DNA of 64,000 nt, taken from the NCBI GenBank assembly GCA_012295275.1, contig CM022671.1, forward strand, positions 25,792,001-25,856,000. Direction: 5' to 3'. This DNA comes from Chrysomallon squamiferum. Lineage: Eukaryota; Animalia; Mollusca. Made by a program: the position numbers and the translations under genes. How positions within the stretch are numbered: the stretch's first letter is position 1; every line of letters begins with the position of its first letter. This document shows, one piece after another, positions 9,201 to 61,517 of the stretch. The notes beneath the pieces are model-generated. The model was not told where the DNA came from. It saw only the letters and a list, made by a program, of their open reading frames with translations, and ran no database searches.

Positions 9201-9544
9201 ATCGTATGTAAAACACCACTGGGTAGTAAACCTGATTCATTGTCCCACCCTTAACAGAGGCAAGCCCAGTCGAGTTCACTCACTCACTCACAAAGAGACG
9301 AACACAGTTCATCAAGTTTACAACTATTTTACTGAAAACAATGGAACGAAATCACAAAAAGTGAATCGAGCAAAATATCAGAGAGACTTCGAGATGTGTT
9401 CCGCATTTCCAGTCTAAATCGTATCGGGTCGTTTAGCTGGTGACATCAACGTTTTCAGTTGACACGTCGAAACGTACACAAAGGATTTTTTTTTTTTTTT
9501 TTTTGCACAAGACGACAAAAGAAATGTGGAAAATTTATGCTCAC

Positions 9545-9729
9545 CAAACTACGCCAAAAGCCCCGTATCCTATCGGTCTGTCGGGTTGTATATCCTGTGG
9601 CTGAACAACCTGAAAGTATGGGACGGTCACAGCGGCAGCTAGAATTGCCTGTTGGGACGTACTTTGGGCTAGGCCACCCTGAAAAGTCATGATATGTCTG
9701 GACGGCAGTCGGTTTCCTACCAGCGCCAT
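9545..9729 (-). CDS. NLK: Nemo-like kinase (NLK/nemo), first coding exon; remaining exons not found in this window
   Basis: Translates to ...QPQDIQPDRPIGYGAFGVVW, the NLK/nemo kinase subdomain I Gly-loop. It ends at a phase-2 donor (TG|GTGAGC) at 9545/9544. Possible ATGs are at 9729 and 9690. No further kinase exon was recognised in 1-9544, so this is presumably a long first intron. Confidence 0.9.
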
Positions 9730-9939
9730 TACAAATCCATATACAACTTGCACTCGACCCGTCCGGTCGAAAAATTATGTGAACTGTAATTCTCCTGAAG
9801 GCAGCATGCCCGGAATCGATGCTTATCTCTTCGGCAGTGACTCCCCTACTAATCTGGAGAGTTTGGTGACTAAAGGTGAAGTTTTGACGGAGAAAATCGA
9901 CATAAAACAGTTAGTAAGACGGGGCACTGACTCACTCAG

Positions 9940-10945: not shown

Positions 10946-13379
10946 TAAATACAAATTGTGTATGTGGTCATTATGAACATCTGAATGACTAAATAAAATG
11001 AAATATAAGGTGAACATTTATGTCAGCACATGTATATACTTACACAGATGCGCGCGCTCACGCACACGTGCCCACGCATAGAGATTTACGAGAAAACCCA
11101 CAGTCACGTACGCCTGTCGCTAATACACTATACGTACACAAATACACACGTTTATGCACATATATGCACGTACGAATACTGTTGCTGACATGTAACAGAA
11201 ATTCATATAACACAGATTTTAAAACACCCATCACATAATTATACATGATGCTAATATACAGAGCGATACATGTATGTATTCACGTCACACATATAACATA
11301 TTTTCGACACTGTGTATATATATATATATTTTACAAAGATGAACAGGACTTAGTGTGTATTCAAATTACTTCTACTGTGTACAAGTGTCGTTCACATACA
11401 CAAACACAAAGACACTAATAAATACGATACAGAATAAAATTTTAATATACAGATTCATTAATACTGCTAATGCCATATACTACTACTGTTACTGCTACAG
11501 TTATACTCAAACACTGAAATAAGTATAATACTATTACTACTGTATCAACGTTTTGTTGTACAGAAGCAACATAGATTATTCAGTTGCTGTGTGTTGAAAA
11601 AAAAATAGAACTTGACGTCATTTTGAAACAAAAAGCAAGTTCATTGTACATGTAATAAAATCACTCGCAGCATTACAACCTGGTTACAAAGCTTAATAGA
11701 CTTCCCTTTCTAACTTGTCTATCGTACTAACTTGATCTTTCGTTTACTGTTTATAAGTTGACACCTAATTTTCAGCCGAAATTGTGTGACTTTTTACGAT
11801 GTCCTGCATGTAACGCTAAAATAATAATAATAATAATAAAAATAGTAATAATAATAATAAAATTTAAAAAAAAAAAAAAAAAAAGAGAAGAAAACAGGCA
11901 TAGGGTCAACGTAGGTTTTCAATATTTCATTGATGAAATCAGTCAGAATCGTTCTTTTTGACAATTTGTGTGAGAGTTCATTTCTCTACAAACGAACAGA
12001 CTAAAAGAAAATGATCCTGTACATTTTTTGTGCTCTTTTCAATTCAAAAAAGTTTCAACGTAATTTTGAACGTTTTCGAATCAAGAATAAAAAAGCAAAA
12101 ACAAAACAAAACAAAACAAAACTATAATAAAATTGTAACTGAAAACAAATGCTACCGCTTGACAAATATTATATTTGGATCAAAAGTCTGACAAGATAAT
12201 TACGTGACGTTTGTATATGTCAAGATGGATATTTTCACCCGTATTTTGGTTCTCAGAAACTCGACTTAAAAGCAGAGAAATGCTGTATATACTTACTCCA
12301 TTGCTATCTTTTTTTTATTTTGTGAATTTTAATTTAAATTTTTTTTTATTATTATTATTTATTTATTAATATTATTATTATTATTTTATTTTTTGTATAC
12401 TTTTTAATTTATTTATTATTATTATTTTTTTTTTCATTATTTATTAATTTATTTTTAGTTTAGTTTAGTTTAGTTTAGTTTAGTTTTTTTTTTTTTAGTT
12501 TAGTTTCTATTTATTTATTTTTTTATTCAGTTTACTTTAGTTAACTTTATGAATAGGTGTGTGTTGTTCGTTCTTTAGAAAGTCTGATTCGATAAAATAA
12601 TTAATTCTTTCCCGTCGATGTAGGCCTACGACTGAAGGCGGACAGGGGGATGGGGACAATTGCTGTCTCAGATTCAGTGAGAAAAACAGTTGGCAACATT
12701 TGGGCAAGACAAGAAGAAACTGATATTTTTGTTTTTTTATCTGTGTAAAATTTCGGTTACGTCAACTCCTCTGGCCCCCCCACACACACACACACACACA
12801 CACCAAATAATCACCATTTGCAACAGTCTTTCCCTGGTTTGGGCTGGCAAGAGTTGTCTTACCAGGTGAATCAATGTAATCATATGGCAGCGGCAAAAAA
12901 TCGAATAATCTGCGCTCGAGGGGAGAATACAGTTCTGGTACCTCCACCCCCACTTGAGTCATTCGTGAGATGTAATACATTACGTGATTTGTGACGTATT
13001 ATTCGATTTAATTAAAGAATCATTTACCACTTCACCGTAGCCAAAAATAGAATTCAACGTGCTGTTTGTATTTTCCAAAGGAAAGATACTTATAAATAGT
13101 GGTTTTTAATTTGAATTTGAATTTTAACTGTTTCACTTTAACTGTTTTATGATTTTACAATGATTTAAAAATAATAATGAAAATGAACAGTACTTGTTTT
13201 CCTTGGTTTTTCAGTTTTACAGTCTGGCATTTATTTTAAAAACTGACGTATTCGCATGAACTTTACCCTCGATACATCGCTTACTAGACTGACATTAATT
13301 TCTACACGTGTCATTAGGATAAAACTGTACTTTGTATGATCTCTGCTCTATTTAAAATTAATTTGTATTATCCAATTAG

Positions 13380-13565
13380 ATGTATTTTCTGCGAATCACT
13401 GCGAAGTTTTCAGTCAAATATAATTTGAACTCCCCCCCCTTTTTTTTTCCTTTTTTTCTTGGGGGGGGTAATGTTTCTAAATATAGATTGGGGTATTCCA
13501 GAACATTCAAACAGCGCCATTATTTTTACAGCTGACGTGATATTTAAGTTTAAACTCAGTTATTC
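13380..13565 (+). promoter_or_regulatory. Promoter of IL-1-like copy 1: kappaB site, CRE-like element, Inr-like motif
   Basis: GGGGTATTCC at 13490-13499 fits GGGRNWYYCC; TGACGTGA at ~13533; TCAGTT at 13556. Confidence 0.55.
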
Positions 13566-13669
13566 CGACATTTAAACTCTATGGTAAAGACGTTGATCGG
13601 AGCTCGAACGTACTCGAAGCTGAAGAAACTTGTTCGGCTACACATTTGTCAAAACCGAGGTTAGAAATA

Positions 13670-14223
13670 ATGTCTCTCCGGGTTATAAACACAAGCAAAG
13701 TCTACTTAAGAAGGTTTGGCATGGACCCAATATTTGCCCAAATAGACGACCGTCAGGTGAAAGTTGGGCCTTTACAGATGGGCAATTCAGGATTTGTATT
13801 CATAAGAAAGACAGCAAAAGCTTCAACAAGAAGTCACGGGATGAAATTATTAATTTCCTGAGGATAAAAATAAGGGGTAAAACATTTGCGATCGTTCCTA
13901 AAATAGAACCAAACAGCGACGTTCTTCAAGTCGAGCTTCAACGTATAAAAGAATCTGACGATCAAAACGATCCAAAGCTTTGGTTTGTTTTAAAACTCAA
14001 CGACGGATTTGAAATGCTCGAATCGTTTTCAGTGCCGGGATATTACTTAAGTATTGACGAACAAGGAGTTGATCTCAGAAGATTAGAAGAATTGCCTGCT
14101 GGAGAAAATTACTGTATTGAGATGTGGCCAGTGGAGAAATCTAGATCACACGTATTTAACCGAATGAAATTTGCAGTTTCTAAAGCACTGAGATCGCCGT
14201 GTGTATGTGGAAACAATGAATAA
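13670..14223 (+). pseudogene. IL-1-like beta-trefoil gene, copy 1 (A-type), frameshifted
   Basis: The N-half is in ORF 13646-13861 and the C-half in ORF 13630-14223. Against copy 3 (ATT TCG CTG AGG) one G is missing at 13857/13858 (ATT TC- CTG AGG). The upstream ATG used by copy 3 is also deleted. Confidence 0.8.
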
Positions 14224-15494
14224 TAACCACAGTAACATTTCAAGCATTGATTCAAGAATCCGGAGAAAGATCCCATTAACAGAGGTGGCACTTGGGAGAA
14301 AACCGACATTACATTATTCTCCAGTCCAGGTGTTCAGAAAAAGTGGTCACTTTATTGGGATAAATATAACTTTATAAAGAAAGTGGGGAAAAAACCCCAA
14401 CATGGAGTGTTTTAATAACATTTTTAAGTGTACAGTTTTATCACATCACATGTATGTGTTTACAGTTGAAGCACTGATGCCTCAACCCCCACTTGAGTTA
14501 TTCCTGCAATATTTTACAATACGTGATTTGTGATATATTACTGTCTTGAATTAAGGAATCAGTTACCACTTTTCAGGAATCAAAAATAGAATTCCAAGGA
14601 AAGGTACTTGTACATTTGATTTTGTTTTTTTTCTTTAAATTTTAATTTTAATTATGATGTTTCATAACTATAAAGCAGGAAGGACATTATTATGGCAGTG
14701 TGCTGTTATTCACTTTTAAGTCTGTAACCTCGTACATACAGAAGGATGGTCAGTGATAAAACATAAAGACGGTACATTATACAAAATGGCTACAACTCAA
14801 AAACTCTTGCCATTCGTTCTTTGTGCATGTGCTCTAACTGTAACTATCCTTGACATAGAAAGTGATATTTGATATTAATTTTCTGTCTATTTCTATATTT
14901 TATCTTTATCCACATTTCTCACAAACTACTCTTTATGTTATCAACTTATCTATCTATGTTTTACCCTCCTGTTCTCAAAATAACCAATTAATCAGTAAAG
15001 CAGTGACTTTGAATAACATTTTAAAAAGTAAATTACAAGTAACTAATCGAAGTAAATATAGTTCCGTGCCTGAAAATACAAAAATTTGTCCAGTTATCAT
15101 ATCTTGTCAGTACGTACATATGTATATTTGCTAATTATTATAATAGTATCGATTATTTTTCAAAGGTTGATAACTCTACATACTCAGTTTCTTTAGAGAA
15201 CAAGAGTTACTTGCTCTCTTTTGAAAATTATGCACATATTGAAAAACAAATAATAAGCCATGTAATATATAGGTTTTTAATTTTATAATTTATATACTGT
15301 ACATATTCAAAGAATTAAAAAAAAAAAAAAAAAAAAAACTACCTCTATATATCTACAGATTTTTCTTCGTTTTTAAATTTATATTTTAAAAATACTATCT
15401 ATAGGCCTCTCTTTATTGTTTTAAATAATTTGCATTGTAATTACTTAGTGTCATCTAATTATAGGTTATATTTCTTTACTTTTTACAGACCTAT

Positions 15495-15532
<38 letters not shown>

Positions 15533-16003
15533 TATATGTCATATTATATTAATCAGAAAATATTTTTGAAGTTATTGTATTGCTTAATTATATCGTATAA
15601 TAAGACTGTTTTGTTTTTCTCAAAATAGTTTCTAGATATTTATAATACGATTAACGTAAGATATTTTTAATGTATATTTCTCTGATAATTGTTATAATAA
15701 ATAAAATAAAACCAAAACCAAAACAAAAAGAAGGAAGTGTTGTTGTTATTGTTGTTTGTTGGAGTTTATGTGTGGGTTTTTCCACGGAAGAGTCACTAAC
15801 ACATTTTCCAATAAAATTTAAAACTCACCCCCTTTTCGGTTTCTAAATATAGATGGGGTTTCACCAACACAAAAATAAACACAACTGGAATAGTAATATT
15901 GCTGTCGTGATATTAAAATTAAAAGCTATAAAAGTCATTTATTCCTGTATTAAACGTTGAACCAAGTCGAAGTTGACGAAACGTCTTCGCTCAGACAAAC
16001 ATA

Positions 16004-16552
16004 ATGCCTCTGGTGACTACGAACACTGATAAAGTCTACCTACGAAGGTCTGGAATGGATTCAAATTACGCCAAAATAGACTACATTCAGATGAAGCTGA
16101 GAGCTGAACCTTTAGAGATGGGCGATAAAAGATTTATATTCATAAGAATGACAGCACGCTTTTTCAAAAACAAAGACGAGATAATACCATTAGTTTCGCT
16201 GAGATCGAAAAAAAATGGTGAAACATTTGCGATCGTTCCTAAAATAGAACCAAACAGCGACGTTCTTGAAGTCGAGCTTCAACGTATAAAAGAATCTGAC
16301 GATCAAAACGATCCAAAGCTTTGGTTTGTTTTAAAACTCAACGATGCATCTGAAAGGCTCGAATCGTTTTCAGTGCCGGGATATTACTTAAGTATTGACG
16401 AACAAGGAGTTGATCTCAGAAGATTAGAAGAATTGCCTGCTGGAGACAATTACTGCATTGAAATGTGGCCAGTGGAGAAATCTAGATCAAACGTATTTAA
16501 CCGAATGAAATCTGCAGTTTCTAATGCACTGAGATCGCTGTCGAAACTATGA
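16004..16552 (+). CDS. IL-1-like beta-trefoil protein, copy 2 (B-type), 182 aa, intronless, no signal peptide
   Basis: Intact ATG-to-TGA ORF. [26 protein letters not shown] parallels IL-1beta [27 protein letters not shown]. An upstream kappaB-like GGGGTTTCAC lies at 15855-15864. Confidence 0.75.
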   Translation: [182 protein letters not shown]

Positions 16553-18554
16553 ATAATAACCACAATAACGCTTCATGCAATGTCAAGAATCCGGAGAAAG
16601 ATCCCATTAACAGAGGTGGCACTTGGGAGAAAACCGACATTACATTATACAAAATGGCTACAACTCAAAAACTTTTGCCATATGATATGTCATAAATTTT
16701 CCTCGAAATTGTTTCTAGATAATTATAATACGATTACAGTTAATTATTTTTAATGTATATTTCTCTGATAATTGTTATAATAAATAAAATAAAACGAAAA
16801 TGAAAGAGTTGTTGTTGTTGTTGTTTTAAGAGTCACAAACACGTGACTAGAGTAAAAATATATCGAGTCACTCACATAAAGTGCTACACTCTGAACTCTA
16901 CATACATGTATTTCCTTGTACCGGCAAACCACGTAATCAAAATATTTAATTTGTAATACACTTTAAAATAAAAATATATAAAAAATTCAGAAATATAAAT
17001 ACAAATATTGTACAAATATTGGCACACACACTTGCATATATATAGTGTGTATGAATATATAGAGATTCATAATAAACTTAAACTTTTTTATTTATTTATT
17101 TTTAATTTTTTCTCTTTTTTCAATTCTATTAATTTTATTTATTTATCATTAATTTTTTCTTTGTTTATTGGTTCTGTTTAAAAATATTAATACTGCGGAC
17201 TGGGTAAAGTGTGGACACTATTTTTAATATATTTAACCTTATACTATTATTTAGTATTCAAAATAGCAGTTTATTCACTTTTAAGTCTGTAACCTCGCAC
17301 ATACAGAAGGATGGTCAGTGATAAAACATAAAGCGGGTACATTATATAAAAGGGCTACAATTCAAAAACTTTTTGTGCATATACTCTCTAACTGTAGCTA
17401 TACTTGACATAGAAAGCGATATTTGATATTAATTTTCTCTTTCCCTATTTTTCTCTTTATCTATATTTCTCACAAACTACTCTTTATGTTATCAACTTAT
17501 CTATCTTGCGAAGGTTCCGATGCCTAATTCGACATTCGACCTCAGCAGAGTAGAGCTGGTTTCTTAAGACAAAAGCCAGTTATATGTTTTATCCTGCTGG
17601 TCTCAACAGTTCGTATATTAAATAAATGACTGCTATGTTTCTCAACTTACCACTCTCTCGAAAATCATTGACATCATTGTCGCCCACAAAAACTATACAT
17701 CAAAACAAAATAATTCTTACATAACCATAACTAAGTTTATTTTTGAAAAAAAGAGTTAATTTTGGGGGGGTTATTTTTGTTGTTGTTGTTGTTTTAAATC
17801 TAAAGAACAAATTAAACAGTAAAGAAGTGACTTTGAATAACATTTTAAAAAGTAAATTACAAGTAACTAATCGAAGTAAATATAGTTCCGTGCCCGAAAT
17901 TATAGAAATTTATCTAGTCATCATATCTTGTCAGTTCGTACATATGTATATTTGCTAATTATTATAATAATTGTTATAATAAATAAAATAAAACGAAAAC
18001 GAAAAAAAAAATAAATAAAGAGTATTGTTGTAGATTAAAAATATATCGAGTCACTCACATAAAGTGATACACTCTGAAATCTACTGGCATGTATTTCCTA
18101 AAACGGCAAACTATGTAATCAAAATATTTAATTTGAAATACATTTTAAAAAAATAATAGTAAATATTGGCCCACACTAATGCATATATATTGTCTGTATG
18201 TATGTTTATATATACAGATTCATACTATATATAAACTTTTTAAAATGTATATATATATATTTTTTTAATTCTAATTTAATATTTGTTTGTTTGTTTGTTC
18301 GCTTATTGTTGTTTCTATTTTTAACCTTTGATAGACAACTTTCTGTGAATTGCTGGTTCTGTTTAAAAATAATAATATTGCGGACTGGGTAAAGGGTGGA
18401 CACAATTTTAATATATTTAACCTTAAACTATTGTTTTGTATTCAAAATAGCAGTTTATTTATCTATGAAAATACTTTAGATAATCCACTAAATGGAAATA
18501 TATTACAAAGTATGCTAAACAATATTTTCTTTTCTTTATTCTTATTTATTTAAT

Positions 18555-18621
<67 letters not shown>

Positions 18622-19539
18622 TTTTTATTTATTTATTATTATTCTTTTATTTTTTTTATTTATTAATTTATTTTTAGTCTAGTTTTTATTTATTTTTTTA
18701 GTTTAGTTCCGTTTAGTTCAATTTATTTACTTTTCATTCAGTTTACTTTAGTTTACTTTATGAGTCTGTGTGTGTTGTTTGTTCTTTAGAAAGTCTGATT
18801 CGATAAAATAATTAATTCTTTCCCGTAGATGTAGGCCTACGACTCACGGGGAACAATTGCTGTCTCAGATTCAGTGAGAAAAACAGTTGGCAACATTTGT
18901 GCAAGACAAGAAGAAACTGATACTTTTGTTTTTTTATCTGTGTAAAATTCCGGTTACGTCAAATCCTCTGGCCCCAACCCCCACACACACACACACACCA
19001 AATAATCACCATTTGCAACAGTCTTTCCCTGGTTTGGGCTGGCAAGAGTTGTCTTACCAGGTGAATCAATGTAATCATATGGCAGCGGCAAAAAATCGAA
19101 TAATCTGCGCTCGAGGGGAGAATACAGTTCTGGTACCTCCACCCCCACTTGAGTCATTCGTGAGATGTATTACATTACGTGATTTGTGACGTATTATTCT
19201 CTTTAATTCTTTAATTCACTTCACCGGAGCCAAAAATAGAATTCAACGTGCTGTTTGTATTTTCCAAGGAAAGATACTTATAAATAGTGGTTTTTAATTT
19301 GAATTTGAATTTTAACTGTTTTATGATTTTACAATGATTTAAAAATAATAATGAAAATGAACACTACTTGTTTTCCTTGGTTTTTCAGTTTTACAGTCTG
19401 GCATTTACTTTAAACTGATGAATTCGCATGAACGTTACCCTCGATACATCGCTTACATTAATTTCTACACGTGTCATTAGGATAAAACTGTACTTTGTAT
19501 GATCTGTGCTCTATTGAAAATTAATTTGTATTATGCAAT

Positions 19540-19741
19540 TAGATCTATTTGCTGCGAATCACTGCGAAGTTTTCAGTCAAATATAATTTGAACTCCCCCT
19601 TTTTTTTTTCCTTTTTTCTTCGGGGGGGGGTAATTTTGTAAAAATAGATTGGGGTATTCCAGAAAAATCGAAAAGCGCAATGATTTTGAATACAACAGAC
19701 GTGATATTTAAGCTTAAAATCAGTTATTCCGTTATTTGAAA
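19540..19741 (+). promoter_or_regulatory. Promoter of IL-1-like copy 3
   Basis: GGGGTATTCC at 19651-19660; GACGTGATATTTAA; TCAGTT Inr-like motif ~20 nt before the ATG at 19742. Confidence 0.55.
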
Positions 19742-20431
19742 ATGTGTAAACTCTGTGGTGAAAATGTTGATCGGAGCTCGAACGTACTCGAAGCTGAAGA
19801 AACTTGTTCGGCTACACATTTGTCAAAACCGAGGTTAGAAATAATGTCTCTGCGGGTTATAAACACAAGCAAAGTCTACTTAAGAAGGTTTGGCATGGAC
19901 CCAATATTTGCCCAAATAGACCACGGTCAGGTGAAAGCTGGGCCTTTACAGATGGACAATAAAAAATTTATATTCATAAGACTGACAGCAGAAGCTCCAA
20001 CGAGAAGTCACGAGATAAAATTATTAATTTCGCTGAGGATGAAAATAAGGGGTAAAACATTTGCGATCTTTCCTAAAATAGAACCAAACTGCGACGTCCT
20101 TAAAGTCGAACTTCAACGTATAAAAAAATCTGACGATCAAAAAGATCCAAAGCTTTGGTTTGTTTTAAAACTCAACGATGCATCTGAAATGCTCGAATCG
20201 TTTTTAGTGCGGGGATATTACTTAAGTATTGGCGAACAAGGAGTTGTTTTCAGAAGATTAGAAGAATTGCCTGCTGGAGCCAATTACTGTATTGAGATGT
20301 GGCCAGTGGAGAAATCTACATCAAACGTATTTAACCGACTGCAATCTACAGTTCCTAATGCACTGAGTTGTCCGTGTGTATGCGGAAACAATGAAGCCGT
20401 GATTCAAGAATCCGGAGAAAGATCCCATTAA
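19742..20431 (+). CDS. IL-1-like beta-trefoil protein, copy 3 (A-type), 229 aa, with an N-terminal extension
   Basis: Intact ORF from ATG 19742 ([10 protein letters not shown]...), with the same core motifs ([13 protein letters not shown]). A deletion removing the shared stop codon extends the C-terminus by [11 protein letters not shown]. Confidence 0.75.
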   Translation: [229 protein letters not shown]

Positions 20432-21442
20432 CAGAGGTGGCACTTGGGAGAAAACCGACATTAAATTATTCTCCAGTTCAGGTGTTCAGAAAAAGTGGTC
20501 TCTTTATTCGAATGAACAAAAGTTTTCAAAAAAAAAAAAAAAAAAACAGAACAAAAATGTCACAAAAAAAACATGGGCTGTTTTAATGAGATTTTTAAGT
20601 GTACAGTTTTATCATTCAAGAACTGCTGCCTCAAGACTCATTTGAGTTATTCCTGCAATATTTTGCAATACGTCATTTGTGATCTACTATTCTCTTGAAT
20701 TAAGGAATCAGTTACCATTTTTCAGAAATCAACGTGCTGTTTGTATTTTCCAAGGAAAGGTACTAATACATTTTTATTTTATTTTTTTTTTTTAAATTTT
20801 GATGTTTCATAACTATAAAGAAGAACAGCAGGAAGGACATTATTATGACAGTGTGCTGTTATTCACTTTTAAGTCTGTAACCTCGTACATACAGAAGGAT
20901 GGTCAGTGATAAAACATAAAGCGGGTACATTATACAAAATGGCTACAACTCAAAAACTCTTGCCATTCGTTCTTTGTGCATGTACTCTAACTGTACTATA
21001 CTTGACATAGAAAGCGATATTTGATATTAATTTTCTATTTTTATTTTTATCTACATTTCTCACAAATTAATTTGTATCTTTATGTTATCAACTTATCTAT
21101 CTATGTTTTATCAAAATAACCAATTAAACAGTAAAGAAATGACTTTGAATAGCATTTAAAAACGTAAATTACAAGTAACTAATCGAAGTAAATACAGTTC
21201 CGTGCCTGAAAATATACAAATTTATCAAGTCATCATATCTTGTCAATACGTACATATGTATATTTGCTAATTATTATAATAGCATCCAAGATTGATAGTT
21301 CTAAGTTTCTTTAATGAACAAGAATTATTTGCTCAGTTCTGCAGATATTGAAAAACTAATAATAAGCTATGTAATATATTTTTTTTTTGATTTGATAATT
21401 TATATACTGTACATATTCACAGGCTTAAAAATGAAAAATATG

Positions 21443-21480
<38 letters not shown>

Positions 21481-22326
21481 AAGAAAAAAAAAAACTTCCT
21501 CTGTATATATCTATAGATTTTTCTTCGTTTTTAATTTATATTTTAAGAATACTATCTATAGGCTTCTCTTTATTGTTTTTATAATTTGGATTGTAATTAC
21601 TTAGTGTCATCTAATTACAGGTTATATTTTTTAGTTTTTACAGACCTATTAACACACACACACACACACATTATATGTCATATTATATTAATCAGAAAAT
21701 ATTTATGAATTTATTGTATTGCTTAATTACATCGTATAATAAGACTTTTTGTTTTGTCTCAGAATAGTTTCTAAATAATTATAATACGATTAACGTTAGA
21801 TATTTTTAATGTATATTTCTCTGATAATTGTTATAATAAATAAAATAAAACCAAAACCAAAAAAAAAAAAAAAAAAAAAGTGTTGTTGTTGTTGTTGTTG
21901 TTGTTGTTTGTTGGGGTTTATGTGTGAGTTTTTCCACGGAAGAGTCACGAACACGTGACTAGATTAAAAATATTTCGAGTCAATCACATAAAGTGATACA
22001 CTCTGAAATCTGCATACATGTATTTCTTTGTACCGGCAAACCATGTAATTAAAATATTTAATTTGTAATACAACTTTAAAATAAAAAAAATTAAAAGTCA
22101 GAAATATAAATACACATATTTTGTACAAATATTGGCACACACACGTGCATATATCTATGAATATATGGAGATTCATACTATATTTAAACTTTTTTCTTTA
22201 TTTATTACTTTAGATAACCCACTAAATGGAAATATATCTACAAAGTATGCTAAACAATATTTTTTTTTTTTTTTTATTCTTATTTATTCATTTATTTATT
22301 TATTTATTTATTATTATTATTATTTA

Positions 22327-22380
<54 letters not shown>

Positions 22381-22654
22381 TTGTAAAGCACCAGTGAACG
22401 AAATGAGGATTTCCCTTTAACTGTTTTATGATTTTGAAAAATAATAAAAAATAAAAAATACTTGTTTTCCTTGATGTTACGAGGTTAGGACATGTCACCC
22501 TCCGGCATTTATTTTAAACTGACTTGTTCGCATGAACTTCTAGCCTCGACACATCGCTAACTTCGAGTGACCTTAATTTCTACACGTCTCGTTGCGATAA
22601 ACTGTACTTTCTATGCTCTATTTAAAACCAGTTTGTATGATGCTGTTAGATGTA

Positions 22655-22795
22655 TTTCCTTTGAATCACTAAGACGTTTTGGGGGTTTCCCAAACAAACA
22701 AAATCGGGGAAGTCAACTGGGATAGGAATATTTCTGACGTGGTAATAAAATTGAAAGCTATAAAGGGTAGAGAAAATAAACTTGAAGTCATTTCT
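22655..22795 (+). promoter_or_regulatory. Promoter of IL-1-like copy 4: AP-1-like, kappaB, CRE, TATA and Inr
   Basis: TGAATCA at 22662; GGGGGTTTCCC at 22681-22691; TGACGT at 22735; TATAAAG at 22759-22765 lies exactly 31 nt before the A of Inr TCATTT (22790). Confidence 0.65.
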
Positions 22796-22879
22796 TCCTG
22801 TGTTAAACAGGCCTAAGCTCTGCGTTTGAACAAAGTCGAAGTTGATGAAATTTATTCGGTTAGACATTTCTCGACACGG

Positions 22880-23452
22880 ATGATAAACATAATGCCTCTG
22901 GTGATTACGAACACTGACAAAGTCTACTTACGAAGGTCTGGAATGGATTCAAATTATGCCAAAACAGACCACATTCAGATGAAGCTGAGAGCTGAACCTT
23001 TAGAGATGGACAATAAAACATTTATATTCATAAGGATGACCGCACGCTTTTCAGAAAACAAAGACGAGATAATACCATTAGTTTCGCTGAGATCGAAAAA
23101 AAGTGGTGAAACATTTGCGATCGTTCCTAAAATAGAACCAAACAGCGACGTTCTTGAAGTCGAGCTTCAACGTATAAAAGAATCTGACGATCAAAAAGAT
23201 CCAAAGCTTTGGTTTGTTTTAAAACTCAACGATGCATCTGAAATGCTCGAATCATTTTCAGTGCGGGGATATTACTTAAGTATTGACGAAGAAGGAGTTG
23301 TTTTCAGAAGATTAGAAGAATTGCCTGCTGCAGACAATTACTGTATTGAGATGTGGCCAGTGGAGAAATCAAGATCACACGTATTTAACCGAATGCAATC
23401 TGCAGTTTCTAATGCACTGAGATCTTCGTGTGTATGTGGAAACAATGAATAA
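22880..23452 (+). CDS. IL-1-like beta-trefoil protein, copy 4 (B-type), ~190 aa
   Basis: First in-frame ATG is at 22880 ([11 protein letters not shown]...); the track start at 22826 is TTG. Intact to TAA, with core motif [13 protein letters not shown]. Confidence 0.75.
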   Translation: [190 protein letters not shown]

Positions 23453-26113
23453 TAACCACAGTAACATTTCAAGCAGTGATTCAAGAATCCGGAGAAAGAT
23501 CCCATTAACAGAGGTGGCACTTGGGAGAGAACCGACATTACATTATTCTCCAGTCCAGGTGTTCAGAAAAAGTGGTCACTTTATTGAAAAAAGGTTTAAA
23601 AAAAGAAAAATGAAGAGAAAAAGTGAGAAAAAAAAAATATGGGCTGTTTTAATGAAATTTTTAAGTGTACAGTTTTATCACTTTATGTGTTTAAAATTCA
23701 AGAACTGATGCCTCAACCCGCACTTGAGTTATTCCTGAAATGTTTTATAATACATGATTTGTGATGTTGTATTCTCATGAATTAAGGAATCAGTTACCAC
23801 TTTTCAGGAATCAAAATTAGAATCCAATGTGCTGTTTGTATTTTCCAAGGGAATGTACTTATACTTTTTTTTTTTTTTTTAAATTTAAATTTAAATTTTG
23901 ATGTTTAATAACTATAAAGAAGAACAGCAGGAAGGACATTATTCTGACAGTGTGCTGTTATTCACTTTTAAGTCTGTAACCTCGTACATACAGAAGGATG
24001 GTCAATGATAAAACATAAAGACGGTACATTATACAAAATGGCTACAACTCAGAAAATCTTGCCATTCGTTCTTTCTGCATATACTCTAACTGTAGCTATC
24101 CTTGACATAGAAAGTGATATTTGATATTAATTTTCTGTCTATTTTTATTTTTTATCTTTATCCACATTTCTCACAAACTACTCTCTATGTTATCAACTTA
24201 CCTATCTTTTGTCCTGCTGTTCTCAAAATATCCAATTAATCAGTAAAGAAGTGACTTTGAATAACATTTTAGAAAGTAAATTACAAGTAACTAATTGAAG
24301 TAAATATAGTTCCGTGCCTGAAAATATACAAATTTATCTAGTCATCATATCTTGTCAATACGTACATATGTATATTTGCTAATTATTATAATAGCATCGA
24401 TTATTTTTCCAAGGTTGATAACTCTACATACTCAGTTTCTTTAGAGAACAAAAGTTCCTCAGTTCTGCAGATATTGAAAAACTAATAATACTCTATGAAA
24501 TATACATTTTTAAAATTTTATAATTTATATACTGTACATATTCACATGGCTTAGAATTAAGGAATCATTTACCACTTTTCAGGAATCAACAATAAAATTT
24601 GACGTGCTGTTTGTATTTTCCAAGAAAAGGTACTTATACATTTGATTTTTTTTTTTTTTTTTTCTTTAAATTTTAATTTTAATTTTGATGTTTCATAACT
24701 ATAAAGAAGAACAGCAGGAAGGAAATTATTATGACAGTGTGCTGTTATTCATTTTTACGTCTGTAATCTCGCACATACAGAAGGATGGTCATTGATAAAA
24801 CATAAAGAGGGTACATTATACAAAATAGCTACAATTTCAAAAACTCCTTTTGCATATACTCTCTAACTGTAGCTATACTTGACATAGAAAGCGATATTTG
24901 ATATTAATTTTCTGTCTTTCTCTAGTTTTCTCTCTATCTATATTTTTCACAAACTGCTCTTTATGTTATCAACTTATCTATCTTGCGAAGGTTCAAATGC
25001 CTAATTCGACATTAGACCCAAGCAGAATAAAGCTGGTTTCTTAAGACAAAAGCCAGTTATATGTTTTATCCTGCTGTTCTCAACAGTTCGTATATGAAAT
25101 AAATGACTGCTATATTTCTCAACTTACCACTCTCGAAAACCATTGACATCATTGTCGCCCACAAAAACTATACATCAAAACAAAATAACTCTTAGATAAC
25201 CACAATTAAGTTTGTTTTGGAAAAGTGTTTTTTAAATATTTTGGTTTTTTTTTTTTTTTTTTTTTTGGTTTTTGTTGTTGTTTTTGTTGTTTTAAATCTA
25301 AAGAACCAATTAAACAGTAAAGAAGTGACTTTGAATAACATTTTAAAAAGTAAATTACAAGTAACTAATCGAAGAAAATATAGTTCCGTGCCTGAAAATA
25401 TACAAATTTACCAAGTCATCATATCTTGTCAGTACGTACATATGTATATTTGCTAATTATTATAATAGTAAAAAAAAAAACACCCAAAAAAACCCAAAAC
25501 CCTCTATATATCTCTATAGATTTTTCTTCTTTTTTAATTTATGTTGTAAGAATATTAACTATAGGCCTCTCTTTATTGTTTTAAATAATTTTGTTTGTAA
25601 TTACTTAGTGTCATCTGATTACAGGTTATATTTCTTTACTTTTTACAAACGTGTTAACACACACACACACACACATTTTATGTCATATTATATTAATCAG
25701 ATAATATTTATGATGTTATTGTATTGCTTAATTGTATCGTATAATAAGACTGTTTTGTTTTCCTCTAAATAGTTTCTAGATAATTCTAATACGATTACTG
25801 TTAGATATTAGATGCCGGTACAAGGAAATACATGTATGTAGATTTATATGAGTGACACGATATATTTTTAATCTAGTCACGTTGTTGTGTCTCTTCCGTG
25901 GAAAAACCCACACATTATCCAACAAACAAGAACAACAACAGCAGCAGCAACAACAACACTTTCATCGTACGACAGACAACGGGAAACCATTTTTAAGTAA
26001 TGTGGGGTGAAATAAAATAAAATGATCAGCTTAGGTGAGTGTGAAATGCAAAAACAACAAACTTATAAATAATAAATAACACTGATATTCTAGTACATGT
26101 TTTAATAATACTT

Positions 26114-26151
<38 letters not shown>

Positions 26152-26434
26152 CGTTTTCGTTTTATTTTGTTTATTATAACAACTATCACAGAAATATATA
26201 TTAATAATATCTAACTGTGATCGTATTATAAAAGTAATGAAAATAAAAAATACTTGTTTTCCTTGATGTTTCGAGATTAGGAGATGTCAACCTCCGGCAT
26301 TTATTTTAAACTGACTTGTTCGCATGAACTTCTAGCCTCGACACATCGCTAACTACGAGTGTCGTTGCGATAAAACTGTACTTTGTTTGATTTGTGCTCT
26401 GTTTAAAATTAACTTGTATGAATCTGTTACATGT

Positions 26435-26572
26435 ATTTCCTATGAATCACTGATACGTTTTAGGGTTTTCCCAAAGATAAAAATCGGGGAATCACAACTG
26501 GGATAGGAGTATTCCTGACGTGGTAATAAAACTGAAACCTATAAATGAGACTATAAACTTGAAGTCATTTAT
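26435..26572 (+). promoter_or_regulatory. Promoter of IL-1-like copy 5
   Basis: TGAATCA at 26443; GGGTTTTCCC at 26463-26472; GGGGAATCAC at 26486; GGAGTATTCC-TGACGT at 26506-26521; TATAAAT at 26540; TCATTT at 26565. Confidence 0.6.
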
Positions 26573-26675
26573 TCCTGTGTTAAACAGGCCTGAGCTCTGT
26601 GTTGAAGACGTTAATCTGCGTTTGAACCAAGTCGAAGTTGATGAAATTTATTCGGTTAGACATTTCTCGACACGT

Positions 26676-27236
26676 ATGATAAACACAATGCCTCTGGTGA
26701 TTACGAACACTGATAAAGTCTTCTTACGAACGTCTGGAATGGATTCAAATTATGCCAAAATAGACCAGATTCAGATGAAGCTGAGAGCTGAACCTTTAGA
26801 GATGGGCGATAAAAGATTTATATTCATAAGAATGACAGCATACTTTTCAAAAAACAAAGACGAAATAATACGATTAGTTTCGCTGAGGTCGAAAAAAAGT
26901 GGTGAAACATTTGCGATCGTTCCTAAAATAGAACCAAACAGCGACGTTCTTGAAGTCGAGCTTCAACGTATAAAAGAATCTGACGATCAAAACGATCCAA
27001 AGCTTTGGTTTGTTTTAAAACTCAACGATGCATCTGAAATGCTCGAATCGTTTTCAGTGCGGGGATATTACTTAAGTATTGACGAAGAAGGAGTTGTTTT
27101 CAGAAGATTAGAAGAATGGCCTGCTGGAGACAATTGCTGTATTGAGATGTGGCAAGTTGAGAAATCTAAATCACATGTATTTAACCGAATGAAATCTGCA
27201 GTTTCTAATGCTCTGAGATCGCCGTGGAAACTATGA
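26676..27236 (+). CDS. IL-1-like beta-trefoil protein, copy 5 (B-type), ~186 aa
   Basis: First in-frame ATG is at 26676. The frame stays open upstream to 26520 (GTG). Core motifs are as in copies 2 and 4. Confidence 0.75.
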   Translation: [186 protein letters not shown]

Positions 27237-27869
27237 ATAATAACCACAATAACACTTCTTGCAGTGATTCAAGAATCTGGAGAAAGATCCAATTAACAGA
27301 GGTGGCACTTGGGAGAAAACCGACATTATATTATTCTCCAGTCCAGGAGTTCAGAAAAAGTGGTCACTTTATTGGAATGAACACAGGTTTAAAAAAAAAA
27401 AAAAATGTCACAAAAACAACATGGGCTGTTTTACTGACATTTGTAAGTGTACAGTTTTATCACATCACATATATGTGTTTAAAATTCAAGAACTGCTGCC
27501 TCGACCTTGACTTGAATTATTACTGAAACGTGATTTGTGATATAGTATTTTCTTGAATTAAGGAATCAGTTACCACTTTTCAGGAATCAAAAATAGAATT
27601 CAACGTGCTGTTTGTATTTTGCAAGGAAAGGTACTTATTTTTTTTTTTTTTTTTTTTTTTAAATTTTGATGTTTCATAGCTATAAAGAAGAACATCAGGA
27701 AGGACATTATTATGGCACTGTGCTGTTATTCACTTTTAAGTCTGTAATCTCGTACATACAGAAGGATGGTCAGTGATAAAACATAAAGCTGTACGTTATA
27801 CAAAAGGACTGCAACTCCTACGATTCGTTTTTTTGTGCATATCCTCTAAGGGTAGCTATCGATATTTGA

Positions 27870-28152
27870 TTTTCGATACATCGCTTACTACGAGTGGCAT
27901 TCATTTCCAGATTTGTCGTTGGATAAAACTGTACTTTGTATGATTTGTTCTCTATTTAAAATTAATTTGTATGATGCAGTTAGATTTATTTGCTGTGAAT
28001 CACTGGGAACTTTTCACTGAAATAACTTGAAAACCATCCTTTTTTTTTTTTTTTTCGTGATGTATTTCTAAATATAGATGATTCCAAACACAAAAATAGG
28101 AGGAGCGCATTGGAATGTTCCTGACGTGATATAAAAATTGAAAACTATAAAA
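27870..28152 (+). promoter_or_regulatory. Sixth copy of the cluster promoter, with no IL-1-like ORF downstream
   Basis: GATACATCGCTTACTA...GATAAAACTGTACTTTGTATGAT...TGAATCACT...GGAATGTTCCTGACGTGATATAAAA matches the upstream regions of copies 1-5. Homology stops at ~28152. Confidence 0.7.
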
Positions 28153-49556: not shown

Positions 49557-51157
49557 TCAGTCAGTGGAGAGCTTTTTCAAAATGAATATTTTTAAGCGAT
49601 AAATTACATAAAACATTCCTTGTAGAAGTGGAAAAATAACAAACCCAACAAGAATGACCATTCCTATGGTATGAACGGGATAATTCCAGTCCAGAACATT
49701 TTGGTACATCACATGATTGTGATCTGGAATCCAATAAAAGACACTGAAAAGGAGATAAATCAGGCCATAAATACATGGATAAATGACGTGAAGAAGTCGA
49801 ACAGGGACTGCTGTTAAGAGATTCTCAAAAACCATTATGACAGTGTTCAAGATATGAAGCTGAAGATTTTCCTGCGAGACCGCAGAAACACCACCCATCT
49901 TTGGCAGTAAGAAGACAAAAAACACCACTGTTACCATGACAGCACCAGTGGAACCAACTGTCAGTAAAATCCAAATAATTTTCAAATACCACGGTAGTCT
50001 GTTGTTAAAAGTTAATATTTCCATTTCGTAATCCTCATCCATGATCTGCTGGTAGCCTGTGTCTTGATACTCCTCGAATGAGGTGATTTCGTGAAAGAGA
50101 CTCGCGTGATAATTCACAGTTGGTGGGTGGCAAAGTTTTGATGGGTTGAAAATATAATACAACAAAACAGTGATGCTGTGAATGGTGACATACAGAGCCA
50201 AAACAGTGTAAGTCCAAACTGTTAGATAGCATGGCCATGGCTGCAGCTTGTCACTTGCAGTGTCTGATTCTTCTGCATGCAAGCTGCCTAAATATATGAA
50301 CCAAAAGTCAACATATACTGCTAAGGCAAGACGATACAAAACAAAGACCACAGGTGGAAGTCGCCACTGCAAAATAAAAATAATAGCATTTGATGATACA
50401 TACTCACATACATGAATATATATACATACATAAATACATTTATATGTTATTTGGATTTATTTATCGATTGAAATGTAATTTTTTCATAATAAATGTTTTT
50501 AAAAATCACCAAATCACTAATAATGTTTTTTCAATTACAGAACACAGTGCTTTTTTGTTACAGTAATAAGTATATACTTTCAAGATTACTAAAATATCAG
50601 TTCTTAACATTAATCATTACTTGTATCTTACTACAAATCAGAAATTATCAATGAGGTGACTGATGAAACCATAAGCAAACATATCGTTAGGTAAATTTTA
50701 ACTGTATAAATGAATGATTGTTTAACAAAAGAAAAAGAAAATACACTAAAAGAAATAAATAGTTTCTAAAATATTAATTTATATGAAACACAGTGTAAAG
50801 AACTGTGCAAAGTATAAATAACCAAGTAATAAGAAATAGATTATTTCCATAAAAAAAAAAACACCAAAAAATGTTTTCATTAAAATGGGTTTTTTTTTTC
50901 ATATATATGAAATGGTTGAAGCGTGAATAACCATGAAAACATTTTTTTAGTGAAAGTGGACTTTATTTCCATTAATTCGTGTACTTAAAACCACATAATT
51001 AAATATAATTTACTACAATAAGAAAACAGTGTTAATAACTGTTATGTAATAATAAATAAATTACATGAAAATTGTAGAATCTTCCACGATGAACTCCAGA
51101 AAATATAAAATTTTTTACTCGAAATTCTTCTCGAAGCTTCGGACAGGCTGAGCTCAT
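49557..51157 (-). CDS. Rolling stone-like multi-pass membrane protein, 2 coding exons
   Basis: Exon 51157-51065 (MSSACPKLREEFRVKNF...FYNFH) splices in phase 0 to 50366-49557. Motifs: YLTVWTY, LPWYLKIIW, LHILN, PVRLLH..YP..YG..Y, Y.NVLDW. Several hydrophobic helices. Confidence 0.8.
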
Positions 51158-57500: not shown

Positions 57501-60500
57501 TTTTTAACAAAAGAACAAATAGTGAACCACTACTGTAAAGCTGGATCATTCACCACAAAGGTAAATACCACAGAGTCAATTTTTCTGTTTATTTTATCAG
57601 CATGAATGTTTTCTGTTCCTATGTATTTTCCATCAGACAACTAAACAGAGGCATAAAAAAATATCTAGAATGAACCACCGATTTTTGAAACTTAGTTATT
57701 TTATTGTCATATTTTATTATTGCTGTTGTTGTTGTTGCTGTTGTTGCTGTTGTTGTTGTTGCTGTTGTTGTTATTGTTGTTGTTGCTGTTGTTGTTATTA
57801 TTACAAATGTTTTTCAGGTTGGTTTGTGTATAAATTTGAAGAATGTACCATGGTTTGAACCAGCTGATCCTGATACATTTTTTCCTCGGTGCTATCGTCT
57901 TAGTAGTGAAGATGACAAGAGTGCTTTCATTGGTCAGTGAAATTTAACAGAACACATATTGTTGCATTTCATTGGATAAAAAATGCGATCCTCTTTAATG
58001 GCTACTTTTAAGAAGTAGGATTCCATATTATAATTTTTGATATTACAGGATTAATGTTAGAAATGTTTATTATATGTAATTAAAAGAACAGAAGGTTGGT
58101 TGTATTTGAAATTGTGACAGTTATACTTTATTAACAGAAGGTTTTCTAATGTCTGAAATGACAGTAATTATGTTTTCTTAAAAGAAGAGGGGTTCATACT
58201 TGAAAATATAGATAATGTATTTAATTAAAAGAAGTTTTGCTAATATGTGAAACTTAATATCTAAACTCAGTTAAGCTGTGGATAATAATTCTTTAATGGT
58301 GGAAAACTGATCACCAACAAATAAGAGCCTGTGATACTGTTTATCTCATTCAAAAGTAATATTATCAGAAGATGAAAAATTTGAGAAGGTTTTAAAATCA
58401 AACTTAAATTTTCATATTCTGAATAGTAAATAATAGGTTAAAGATACTTCTAAAACAGTTTTTCTGTTCACAAACCAACTTACCCAAGATATATATAGAT
58501 ATAGATATAGATATTTGAACAATAATTTCAACATTTTTGCCTTTCAGATGATTTCCGGTTAAGTGCATGTATAAACATACTTAGCATTGTTACAAGTCAG
58601 TATTCTGTTGCAAAGACTTTAAAAGAGGAATCTGATAGTACTGGTGGAAATGTGGCAGCAACAGATTCATCCAGTGAAGAAAAAGAGTCTGAAACCAAAT
58701 TAAGTGTAGATGAGACGGGTGAATCTGAACAGAAAGAAAAAACAGAGACAGAAGACTTAAAGTTGTCACTTGATCAAGAACAAGGTTTATCCTTATTTTG
58801 AAAAAATCTTCTTTTTTTCTTCCTTTTTTGCTTAAATTCTGTTTTAATTTTTAAAAAGTTTTTAATTTTATTATTATTTTTAATTTTTAATTTTTTTTTA
58901 TTATTTTGTTGTTTTATTTTATTTTATTTTATTTTATTTTATTTCGTTTTTATTTTTATTTTTGTTTTGTTTTGTTTTATTCACAATTAACAGATCATTA
59001 AAAAAAAAAAAACCCCACTATTGTTCTAACATTTCCTAGGTATAAATGCACACATTTTAGAAACTTAAAATTATTTCTTCTTTTTACCACTTGTTATAAT
59101 ATTTCTGTAACAGACACACTTTAACATCATTAACAACACACTGCATAAAGGCCTATTATTTTACAAAATTATTTTTTATATTTTTTAATTTATTATCATC
59201 AAAATTAAATAACAAATATTTATCGTTAAGTATAATTATTTTATTGCACAAACCTAATGTCTTTTAATTTAATTTTTTATTTACATTTAATTTTTAAAAT
59301 ATTTTATAATTTAAAAATCAAACATTTTTAACAGAAAAAGTGAAGGAATCTCAAGCTAGTGACAGAACACCCAAAAAGGTTAAAAAGAAGGCAGTTGTTC
59401 CTTTGCGAGTATTGGAACAAGCAATGTCACAGTGCAATCGCTTTTTGTCTTCAAGAGAACATGAAGATATTGACCTACCTGAAGATGTAAGTTTTATTTG
59501 GTAAAAATAGATTTCATAAAAGAATATATAATACATACACCACACAAACATGAGTTTTCTTTACGCACGCATACACACTCACATATGTATGTGTGTGTGT
59601 GTGTGTATATACCTTTTTTTATCTACCTACAAGGTCGAATGTCCAACAAATCACTATGCTGTGATCAATGTAAATTAGTATAAATACATTTTAATGAGAT
59701 CATTCAGTGATAAACATTTAATCTGACATGATAACTGATTTAAGTAGTAGCTAGAGTAGAAAATAGTAAAATTGATTCATAATAAAAACATGACACTATT
59801 ACTTGTTAAAATGGATATTAACATGATATTATTGTTGTTCTTACTGTTGTCATCATCATTATTATTATTATTTTTATTTTATTTGATTTACATGGTAATA
59901 TTTTAATGTTTTATTTATCATTCAGCGTGGTCTTTCTGAGAGCCATTGGGATCAGCTAATACAAAACTATTATCTACTTGCTCAGTAAGTGTATTTGTTT
60001 TGCTTAAACCATTTTTTTAATATTTTTTTTTAGATCTTTTAAATTTGTTTATTAGGCTTTTGGAAATAGGTCGTATTTCATTAAATATTTTTTATATCGT
60101 TTTGTTTGTTTGTTTGGTATTTGGAAGTAGGTCGTATTTTATCAGATATTTTTTTTTATATATAATGTTTTGTTGTGTTTTTCAGTGACGGTGCTATAAT
60201 AACCTCAGTGTCAAAGTCACTTCTTTCCCAGTGTGAGAGCTTGCTGAACAGAATAAAAGCCAAGTTTCCCCAGTTTGAGATGAACGGAGTGCGCAATGTG
60301 TGGATCGTCAAGCCTGGTGCCAAGTCAAGAGGAAGAGGTGATTTCAGCTTTGTTTCGTTGTATTTTCTCTTTATTTGCACACCTGAACAGCTTTATTTTA
60401 TTCTCATTCAGAATAGCTGAGACATGTTAGTGACAGAAATATACACACAAATTAACTTGAAGATAACTGAAGACATTGAAGTTTAGTATGAGATGTTGAC

Positions 60501-60548
60501 ATTCTCTTTTTTTTTGTGTGTGTCTGAGTGCAAGTGAGTGTTTGTATG

Positions 60549-60582
<34 letters not shown>

Positions 60583-61473
60583 TACACATATTTGGTGTGT
60601 AAAAGTATATATATGTGGGGAATTGTGTTTGTTACGTATATTTTTAAAAATTATAAGCTATTTAACTTTCTTTCTGTGAATTATCAGGTATAACTTGTTA
60701 CAACAAACTAGAAGACATGCTGAAACTTGTCAGTGCTCAGGTTTGTCAGAAAGATGGAAAATACGTTGTCCAGAAGTATATTGGTAATTTTACTATTCTA
60801 AACATTAATCAGCAGGTTTACAAAAAACAGCACGATTTACCTTAATGAAATTATAATCACCTTGTGAGAAATTTCTATTTCAATCTTGTAGGTTTGCTAA
60901 TTCTGTTCTGTTAGTTAAATAATAATAATCTGAAATTTAGTTTGGGAATGAATCAGTCTGAAATGGTGAATATTTAAAATGTAAAAATTTGAACATTTAT
61001 AAGAGATTCACTTTATAACTGATTAACTCACAAAGCTACACAAAAGTTTAGCTATAATTAATAACTTTCAGTTTTATATATATATAACCATTTTAAAATA
61101 TACCTACAACCGTCATTCAGAATGACATTAATCGTGATTAATTTACAAATGTTTTGCTGTCACGTTTCAGAAAGACCGCTGCTGGTGTACAACACAAAGT
61201 TTGATATTCGCCAGTGGTTTCTCGTTACTGACTGGAGTCCTCTCACAATGTGGTTTTACACGGACAGCTACCTCCGCTTCTGTTCGCAGCAGTACACGCT
61301 GGACAACTTCGACGAAGCGATCCACCTCTCCAACAATGCCATTCAGAAAAACAAGAAGAATGGTCCCCGGTCACCTAAACTGCCCAACGACAACATGTGG
61401 ACACATGAAGATTTCAAGAAATACCTTAGGTTTGTTACGTTGTTACTTCCACAGTTTCATTATCAGTATATGT

Positions 61474-61517
<44 letters not shown>

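Follow-up and report, generated by a model that had tools for sequence, protein, structure and literature searches.

The window analyzed here, a stretch of 64,000 nucleotides from the genome of the mollusc Chrysomallon squamiferum, contains five homologous gene copies that lie in tandem on the forward strand between positions 13490 and 27236. Four of these copies are uninterrupted open reading frames (ORFs), and one, copy 1, is frameshifted. We lean toward a reading in which the array encodes likely leaderless β-trefoil proteins of the IL-1 superfamily, which would probably have been retroposed from an IL-1anc gene with loss of its PDZ domain and would act through the mechanism proposed in the final section; membership of the array protein in the IL-1 superfamily, taken by itself, appears quite probable from its sequence. 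The initial annotation of this DNA had proposed an IL-1-type cytokine locus of five intact genes and implied that an invertebrate IL-1 would be new. The IL-1-type identity is still the best supported one, given the ranks of IL-18, IL-33, and IL-1 in the ESM Atlas and the motifs shared by eye with bivalve proteins, but five intact genes are not present, and the implied novelty does not hold: IL-1anc, the invertebrate IL-1 found across Eumetazoa, with several genes per bivalve and per crustacean species, has been published (Fontenla-Iglesias et al., Nat Ecol Evol 2026, PMC13736523; preprint PMC12338702). The view that IL-1 is confined to vertebrates is not overturned here because it had already been overturned in print. 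Statements on IL-1anc below refer to those portions of that report, including its Tables S1 and S2, that were used for the comparison.

Structure of the array

Copy 1 has one base fewer than the other four copies at ~13857, and for this reason it reads just 63 codons before a stop. When P0001 and P0002, two relatives described in the next section, were used as tblastn queries, the two halves of copy 1 matched P0001 in two different frames; the upstream ATG of copy 3 is absent from copy 1. DNA contigs from two other runs span position 13857 and contain the extra base together with 24 other differences, many of them as in copy 3, and they therefore neither confirm nor refute the frameshift.

In all four intact copies, the trefoil-coding core is a single uninterrupted ORF, preceded by a leader of at most 34 residues. 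The earlier description of five intronless paralogues thus stands as regards the array of five and the trefoil-coding part, whereas one of the five is not intact and an upstream exon, discussed below, is possible. The stated absence of a signal peptide or transmembrane segment was borne out by a hydropathy scan (not SignalP), in which the highest 19-residue Kyte–Doolittle mean was 0.55 to 0.86 in the four intact copies, indicating no hydrophobic segment. Twelve strand-like segments can be recognized by eye, the LES motif is found in all five copies, and the sequence motifs quoted in the initial annotation are present in the copies. Upstream ORFs of 12 codons lie at 22845–22883 (copy 4) and 26641–26679 (copy 5); the stop of each shares bases with the first ATG that is in frame with the copy, and translation of the two copies could be affected.

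Sequence relatives and assignment to the IL-1 superfamily

A phmmer search over 1.84 billion representative proteins returned one match, P0001, a protein of 422 aa that is 32% identical across 146 residues (E 4e-14). P0001 matches nearly the whole core, which argues that the array protein is not a chance ORF and that conservation of its core spans a long distance. P0002 is a near-identical variant of P0001; the cores of the two are 32 to 37% identical to those of the copies and are followed by a similar tail. Both are unannotated ENA proteins, each found on a single contig. Unlike the array proteins, they carry a long acidic N-terminal region of ~226 residues or more, with a 16-aa Cys/His/Asp repeat that occurs three times in P0001 and six times in P0002; judged from the sequences, this region is possibly a variable pro-domain of a type new for IL-1-like proteins. 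The C-termini of P0001 and P0002 also differ. Word-based searches found no homologue of copy 2 among 59 candidates and none for a second query, alignment A3, among 2373, and the P0001 core retrieved P0001 and P0002 only (426 candidates). None of seven start variants of copies 2 to 5 occurs in a collection of 15 billion proteins.

Comparison of language-model features in the ESM Atlas points to the IL-1 clan. With copy 2 as the query, the top three rows were IL-18 clusters at 0.93, sharing 182 to 184 of 256 features, and with residues 215 to 380 of P0001 they were again IL-18 clusters, at 0.94 to 0.95 and with 186 to 193 features. For both queries, IL-33 followed at 0.91 to 0.92 as the next among eukaryote rows, with IL-1 at 0.88 to 0.90; ricin-B, I66, and DUF569 rows scored 0.85 with 91 to 107 features, and the rows listed for copy 2 and for P0001 included none for FGF, AbfB, or fascin. 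No rates of the Atlas have been measured on protein fragments, and the two queries, being relatives of each other, are not fully independent. By these features alone, the array protein appears nearer to the IL-1 clan than to other trefoils (0.93–0.95 versus 0.85), the indication being weak for copy 2. The vertebrate IL-18, IL-33, and IL-1 proteins (PF00340 and PF15095) thus resemble the array in forming the nearest clusters and in lacking a signal peptide, but they give no Pfam or PDB sequence match, and likeness of features does not show orthology to IL-18. Internal three-fold symmetry was significant in none of six comparisons (p 0.15–0.95); since the sequences of IL-1 trefoils show little symmetry, this test is uninformative.

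Short stretches resembling bivalve IL-1anc proteins were found by eye. Copy 4 shares 7 of 17 ungapped residues with oyster CvirIL-1.1 in predicted strands 3–4 and 9 of 19 with mussel MtroIL-1.1 in predicted strands 9–11, also ungapped; in strand 4, P0001 and scallop PmaxIL-1.1 have five consecutive residues in common, and in strands 2–3, P0001 agrees with CvirIL-1.2 at 5 of 21 ungapped positions. These are the best-looking stretches chosen from comparison with Table S2 of PMC13736523; they are unscored, and the strand numbers were assigned by eye.

Comparison with IL-1anc

IL-1anc proteins mostly combine a PDZ domain with a trefoil, a subset being PDZ-less, and in all genes compared the trefoil is encoded on three to five exons with two conserved central introns of conserved phase (PMC13736523). 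A PDZ domain is present in 7 of 7 bivalve rows of Table S2 and absent from 4 of 10 arthropod rows. The bivalve proteins (PmaxIL-1.1, CvirIL-1.1/1.2, and MtroIL-1.1) are like those of the array in being leaderless, in occurring as several copies per species, and in having an IL-1-like core with the (F/L)ES motif of strand 9, which appears as LES in the array; they differ in that the array ORFs lack a PDZ domain, have an intron-free core and a short C-terminal tail, and lie among other neighbors. The PDZ-less crustacean proteins PclaIL-1.2, PclaIL-1.3, and PvanIL-1.2 resemble the array proteins in size (~190–200 aa) and in being nearly bare trefoils, but by eye their motif matches are not as clear as those of the bivalves, and their loss of the PDZ domain was likely independent of that in the array.

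No PDZ domain was found in the copies, in P0001, or in the 147 window ORFs scanned, from a total of 482 ORFs of at least 45 aa, a scan that short exons escape. The IL-1anc genes of cnidarians and ambulacrarians are linked to GCC2, ESD, TRAF3, EIF2A, or IL-1R-like genes, and no such linkage is stated for bivalves in the portions of PMC13736523 used; none of these genes was met within the 64 kb, where the neighbors of the array are PANTS-like, OGFOD2-like, Rost, and TTL genes. The mollusc sample of that study consists of three bivalves, and its Table S1 shows no gastropod or cephalopod. We found no earlier description of an intronless or a gastropod IL-1 in the literature searched, which excludes most subscription journals. 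Because the PDZ domain and introns of IL-1anc were not found and the fold is unconfirmed, we do not file the array as canonical IL-1anc; the simplest account would be a PDZ-less offshoot that was retroposed and then tandemly amplified. An invertebrate IL-1 is already known, and what is probably new here is an intron-free trefoil in which no PDZ domain was found, with a leader of at most 34 residues, different neighbors, and kB-type sites upstream.

Duplication history, upstream DNA, and read contigs

The two duplicated blocks in Table 1, with identities of 84% and 86%, fit a duplication of a gene pair, copies 1 and 2 corresponding to copies 3 and 4, plus one further copy. Over the first 230 alignment columns, the copies form two subtypes, 1/3 and 2/4/5, which are 92 to 94% identical within and 71 to 76% between subtypes. 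Beyond these columns, every pair is 92 to 97% identical and copy 1 is nearest to copy 2. This homogeneous 3′ part, set against a split 5′ part, suggests that gene conversion homogenized the 3′ part of the coding region.

The upstream DNA was scanned with established promoter consensus words. The kB consensus GGGRNWYYCC has six matches at four places in the 64 kb, compared with 0.57 expected, and none of 100 shuffles reached six. Three of the four places precede array copies, lying 180 bases upstream of copy 1, 91 of copy 3, and 199 of copy 4, and relaxed Rel-type sites are found at –230 (copy 2) and –213 (copy 5). Copies 1, 4, and 5 are also preceded by TGACGT, together with TATA- and initiator-like words.

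Read contigs partly cover the region of copy 4 in 9 of the 11 runs listed, two being RNA runs from one study. On positions 12300–16800, these two RNA runs gave five and six contigs, each of depth 2 to 6. The contigs cover coding parts and a stretch of ~1.2 kb downstream of copy 1, and their mismatches suggest an origin from other copies or alleles. The 1.3 kb preceding copy 1 is free of RNA contigs, although contigs indicate presence only.

Counterevidence and alternative explanations

Several observations weigh against assigning the array to functional IL-1-type genes. Pfam returned no family for any of the five copies or for P0001, IL1 (PF00340) and IL33 included, NCBIfam gave no match for the array copies, and the PDB sequences gave no IL-1 match, the sole trefoil row being a designed protein at E 0.33. 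P0001 and P0002 read LRS where the array copies have LES. The Atlas recognition score of copy 2, 2158, lies below the tool's line of 2300, making its value of 0.93 weak when taken alone, and an unnamed Bacteroidota cluster (218 aa, no common Pfam family) reached 0.93 with 172 to 175 shared features in both Atlas searches. AlphaFold models built from shallow alignments had a predicted local distance difference test (pLDDT) of 35.8 for copy 2 (five near-identical rows) and 30.5 for the core of copy 4 (six rows). Searched with the copy 2 model, Foldseek had no match at E 0.001 and VIA reached a best Z of 4.3; since confidence in this model is too low, these outcomes are meaningless and are not evidence against a trefoil. 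The kB sites all descend from one duplicated promoter and count as one observation, not five. Being of low depth, from a single study, and possibly due to DNA carry-over, the RNA contigs do not prove transcription. Finally, selection among the copies is weak: the ratio of nonsynonymous to synonymous rates (dN/dS) is 0.46 to 0.66 among copies 2, 4, and 5 and 0.85 to 1.09 against copy 3, from small counts of 8 to 18 synonymous differences.

These observations bear on three other explanations, each of which we consider unlikely. The ORFs could be the last exons of precursors that are longer and spliced, whose upstream exons would encode a pro-domain, either acidic like that of P0001 or a PDZ domain, with a caspase cut close to a VEVD-like word that precedes the core. 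A pyrimidine tract followed by AG, resembling a splice acceptor, lies upstream of the Met of copies 4 and 5 within a promoter-like region. From this AG, the frame of copy 5 is open for 29 codons, a stretch with homology to copy 3's leader of 34 aa, and an upstream exon is therefore possible; the acidic regions of P0001 and P0002 point the same way. However, the corresponding frame runs into a stop in copy 4, and in copy 2 a deletion of 19 bases puts it out of register. An ATG occupies the equivalent position in copy 3, and the acceptor-like position is also where the TATA- and initiator-like words sit. In addition, tblastn of the P0001 and P0002 N-terminal regions against the window gave no match, and the PDZ scan described above was negative. 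Precursors of this kind are thus improbable.

A second explanation, to which we attach a similarly low probability, is that the copies are decaying processed pseudogenes or neutrally drifting duplicates of little or no function. The frameshift of copy 1, the varying starts and leaders, a sixth promoter without a gene, the dN/dS of ~1 against copy 3, and RNA contigs that give no proof of transcription would all fit. Against this stand four of five frames that are intact over 500 or more bases despite flanks rich in indels, the only core indel among the intact copies being six bases long and in frame. Moreover, dN/dS is below 1 in five of the six copy pairs, and both subtypes, just 71 to 76% identical in their 5′ coding part, retain kB-type sites.

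The third explanation, a different β-trefoil (FGF-like, lectin, or protease inhibitor) or a gene of bacterial origin with a noncytokine role, has equally little in its favor. The strand 9–10 motif is common to many trefoils, bacterial transfer would likewise account for the missing introns, and the Bacteroidota cluster scored as high as the IL-18 clusters did for copy 2; the unnamed Atlas clusters are possibly bacterial trefoils of an IL-1/IL-18-like kind. Yet the top named Atlas rows all belong to the IL-1 clan, with other trefoils far behind in shared features, and pattern scans confirmed no relative among 50 prokaryote genome, 243 viral contig, and 263 metagenome contig candidates. The single phmmer match was P0001, and the by-eye likeness to bivalve IL-1anc extends to strands 2–4.

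Other features of the window

The window contains spliced genes and has a GC content of 23 to 35%. Its features are collected in Table 1. The exon at 9544–9774 was assigned by motif to a gene that we take to be that of Nemo-like kinase. The Rost (rolling stone) gene is not known from vertebrates; its presence and the by-eye closeness of the array to bivalve IL-1anc would fit an invertebrate host, probably a mollusc. No TIR or Ig family was found in the 147 ORFs scanned out of 482.

Table 1. Features of the array and its surroundings, in window coordinates
Feature	Position	Strand	Remarks
Probable first coding exon, presumably Nemo-like kinase	9544–9774	-	Head-to-head with the array; no Pfam or PDB match
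Duplicated block	12307–15802		84% identical to 18528–21954; pairs 1+2 and 3+4
kB consensus, copy 1 upstream	13490–13499	+	
Copy 1	13670–14223	+	Met 13670, stop 14223; frameshifted, base missing at ~13857; subtype of 5′ part as in copy 3
Relaxed kB/Rel-type site, copy 2 upstream	15774–15783	+	TATA-like box at 15927
Copy 2	16004–16552	+	Intact ORF, 182 aa; trefoil-like core, short C-terminal tail, no leader
kB consensus, copy 3 upstream	19651–19660	+	
Copy 3	19742–20431	+	Intact ORF, 229 aa; 34-aa acidic leader precedes the Met at 19844 common to all copies
Duplicated block around copy 4	22437–24100		86% identical to 26230–27860 around copy 5
Copy 4 upstream module	22681–22810	+	kB 22681–22691, TGACGT 22735, TATA-like 22759, initiator-like 22788, acceptor-like AG ending 22810
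Copy 4	22880–23452	+	Intact ORF, 190 aa
Copy 5 upstream module	26463–26587	+	Relaxed kB 26463, TGACGT 26516, TATA-like 26540, initiator-like 26565, acceptor-like AG ending 26587
Copy 5	26676–27236	+	Intact ORF, 186 aa; frame also open 29 codons upstream, to acceptor-like AG at 26587
Sixth, orphan upstream module	27873–28152	+	TGACGT and TATA-like kept, kB broken; unrelated sequence behind, no coding copy
PANTS-like gene	~29.4–30.9 kb	-	
OGFOD2-like gene	34.0–35.2 kb	+	Divergent from the PANTS-like gene
Long ORF, 298 aa	43691–44587	+	Weak below-cutoff Pfam matches only
Rost (rolling stone) family ORF	49557–50456	-	
Long ORF, 177 aa	51900–52433	+	Weak below-cutoff Pfam matches only
Exons of a tubulin-tyrosine-ligase (TTL) family gene	60166–63433	+	

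Proposed mechanism and implications

If the array does consist of retroposed IL-1-type genes, as we are inclined to think, its product is likely an inducible cytokine. Microbial sensing would activate Rel/NF-kB, which would bind the kB sites observed upstream of the copies. The near-mature trefoils, with 0 to 34 leader residues and no hydrophobic leader, would remain in the cytosol and may need little or no trimming by caspases. By analogy with IL-1 and IL-1anc, they might leave the cell through gasdermin pores or upon cell damage and then engage an Ig-TIR receptor, a gene for which was not seen among the 147 window ORFs scanned. The two subtypes, 1/3 and 2/4/5, which differ in their 5′ coding part, may, more speculatively, tune receptor use. 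For IL-1anc itself, immune induction has been described in lamprey, sea urchin, and Nematostella, and a caspase cleaves one member; direct receptor binding is still lacking (PMC13736523).

A more far-reaching scenario, which we put forward only tentatively and regard as rather doubtful, is that in a mollusc-like lineage a retroposed, PDZ-free, and nearly pro-domain-free IL-1 gave rise to tandem copies driven by an NF-kB promoter and became a one-signal inflammatory cytokine with two subtypes diverging N-terminally. If so, this cytokine, which should be easy to express, would have come to lack the PDZ domain convergently with the IL-1s of amniotes.

Since the array proteins are already close to a mature ligand, they would be convenient for a question named in PMC13736523, whether IL-1s of invertebrates engage Ig-TIR receptors and cause inflammation. 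According to the same report, sequence searches likewise missed invertebrate IL-1anc, and most members were found through their PDZ domain, such that divergent ones may be missed. A PDZ-less, intron-free, and Pfam-negative branch such as this would be an example of what PDZ-based screens miss, and it suggests that pro-domains have been lost repeatedly in the family.

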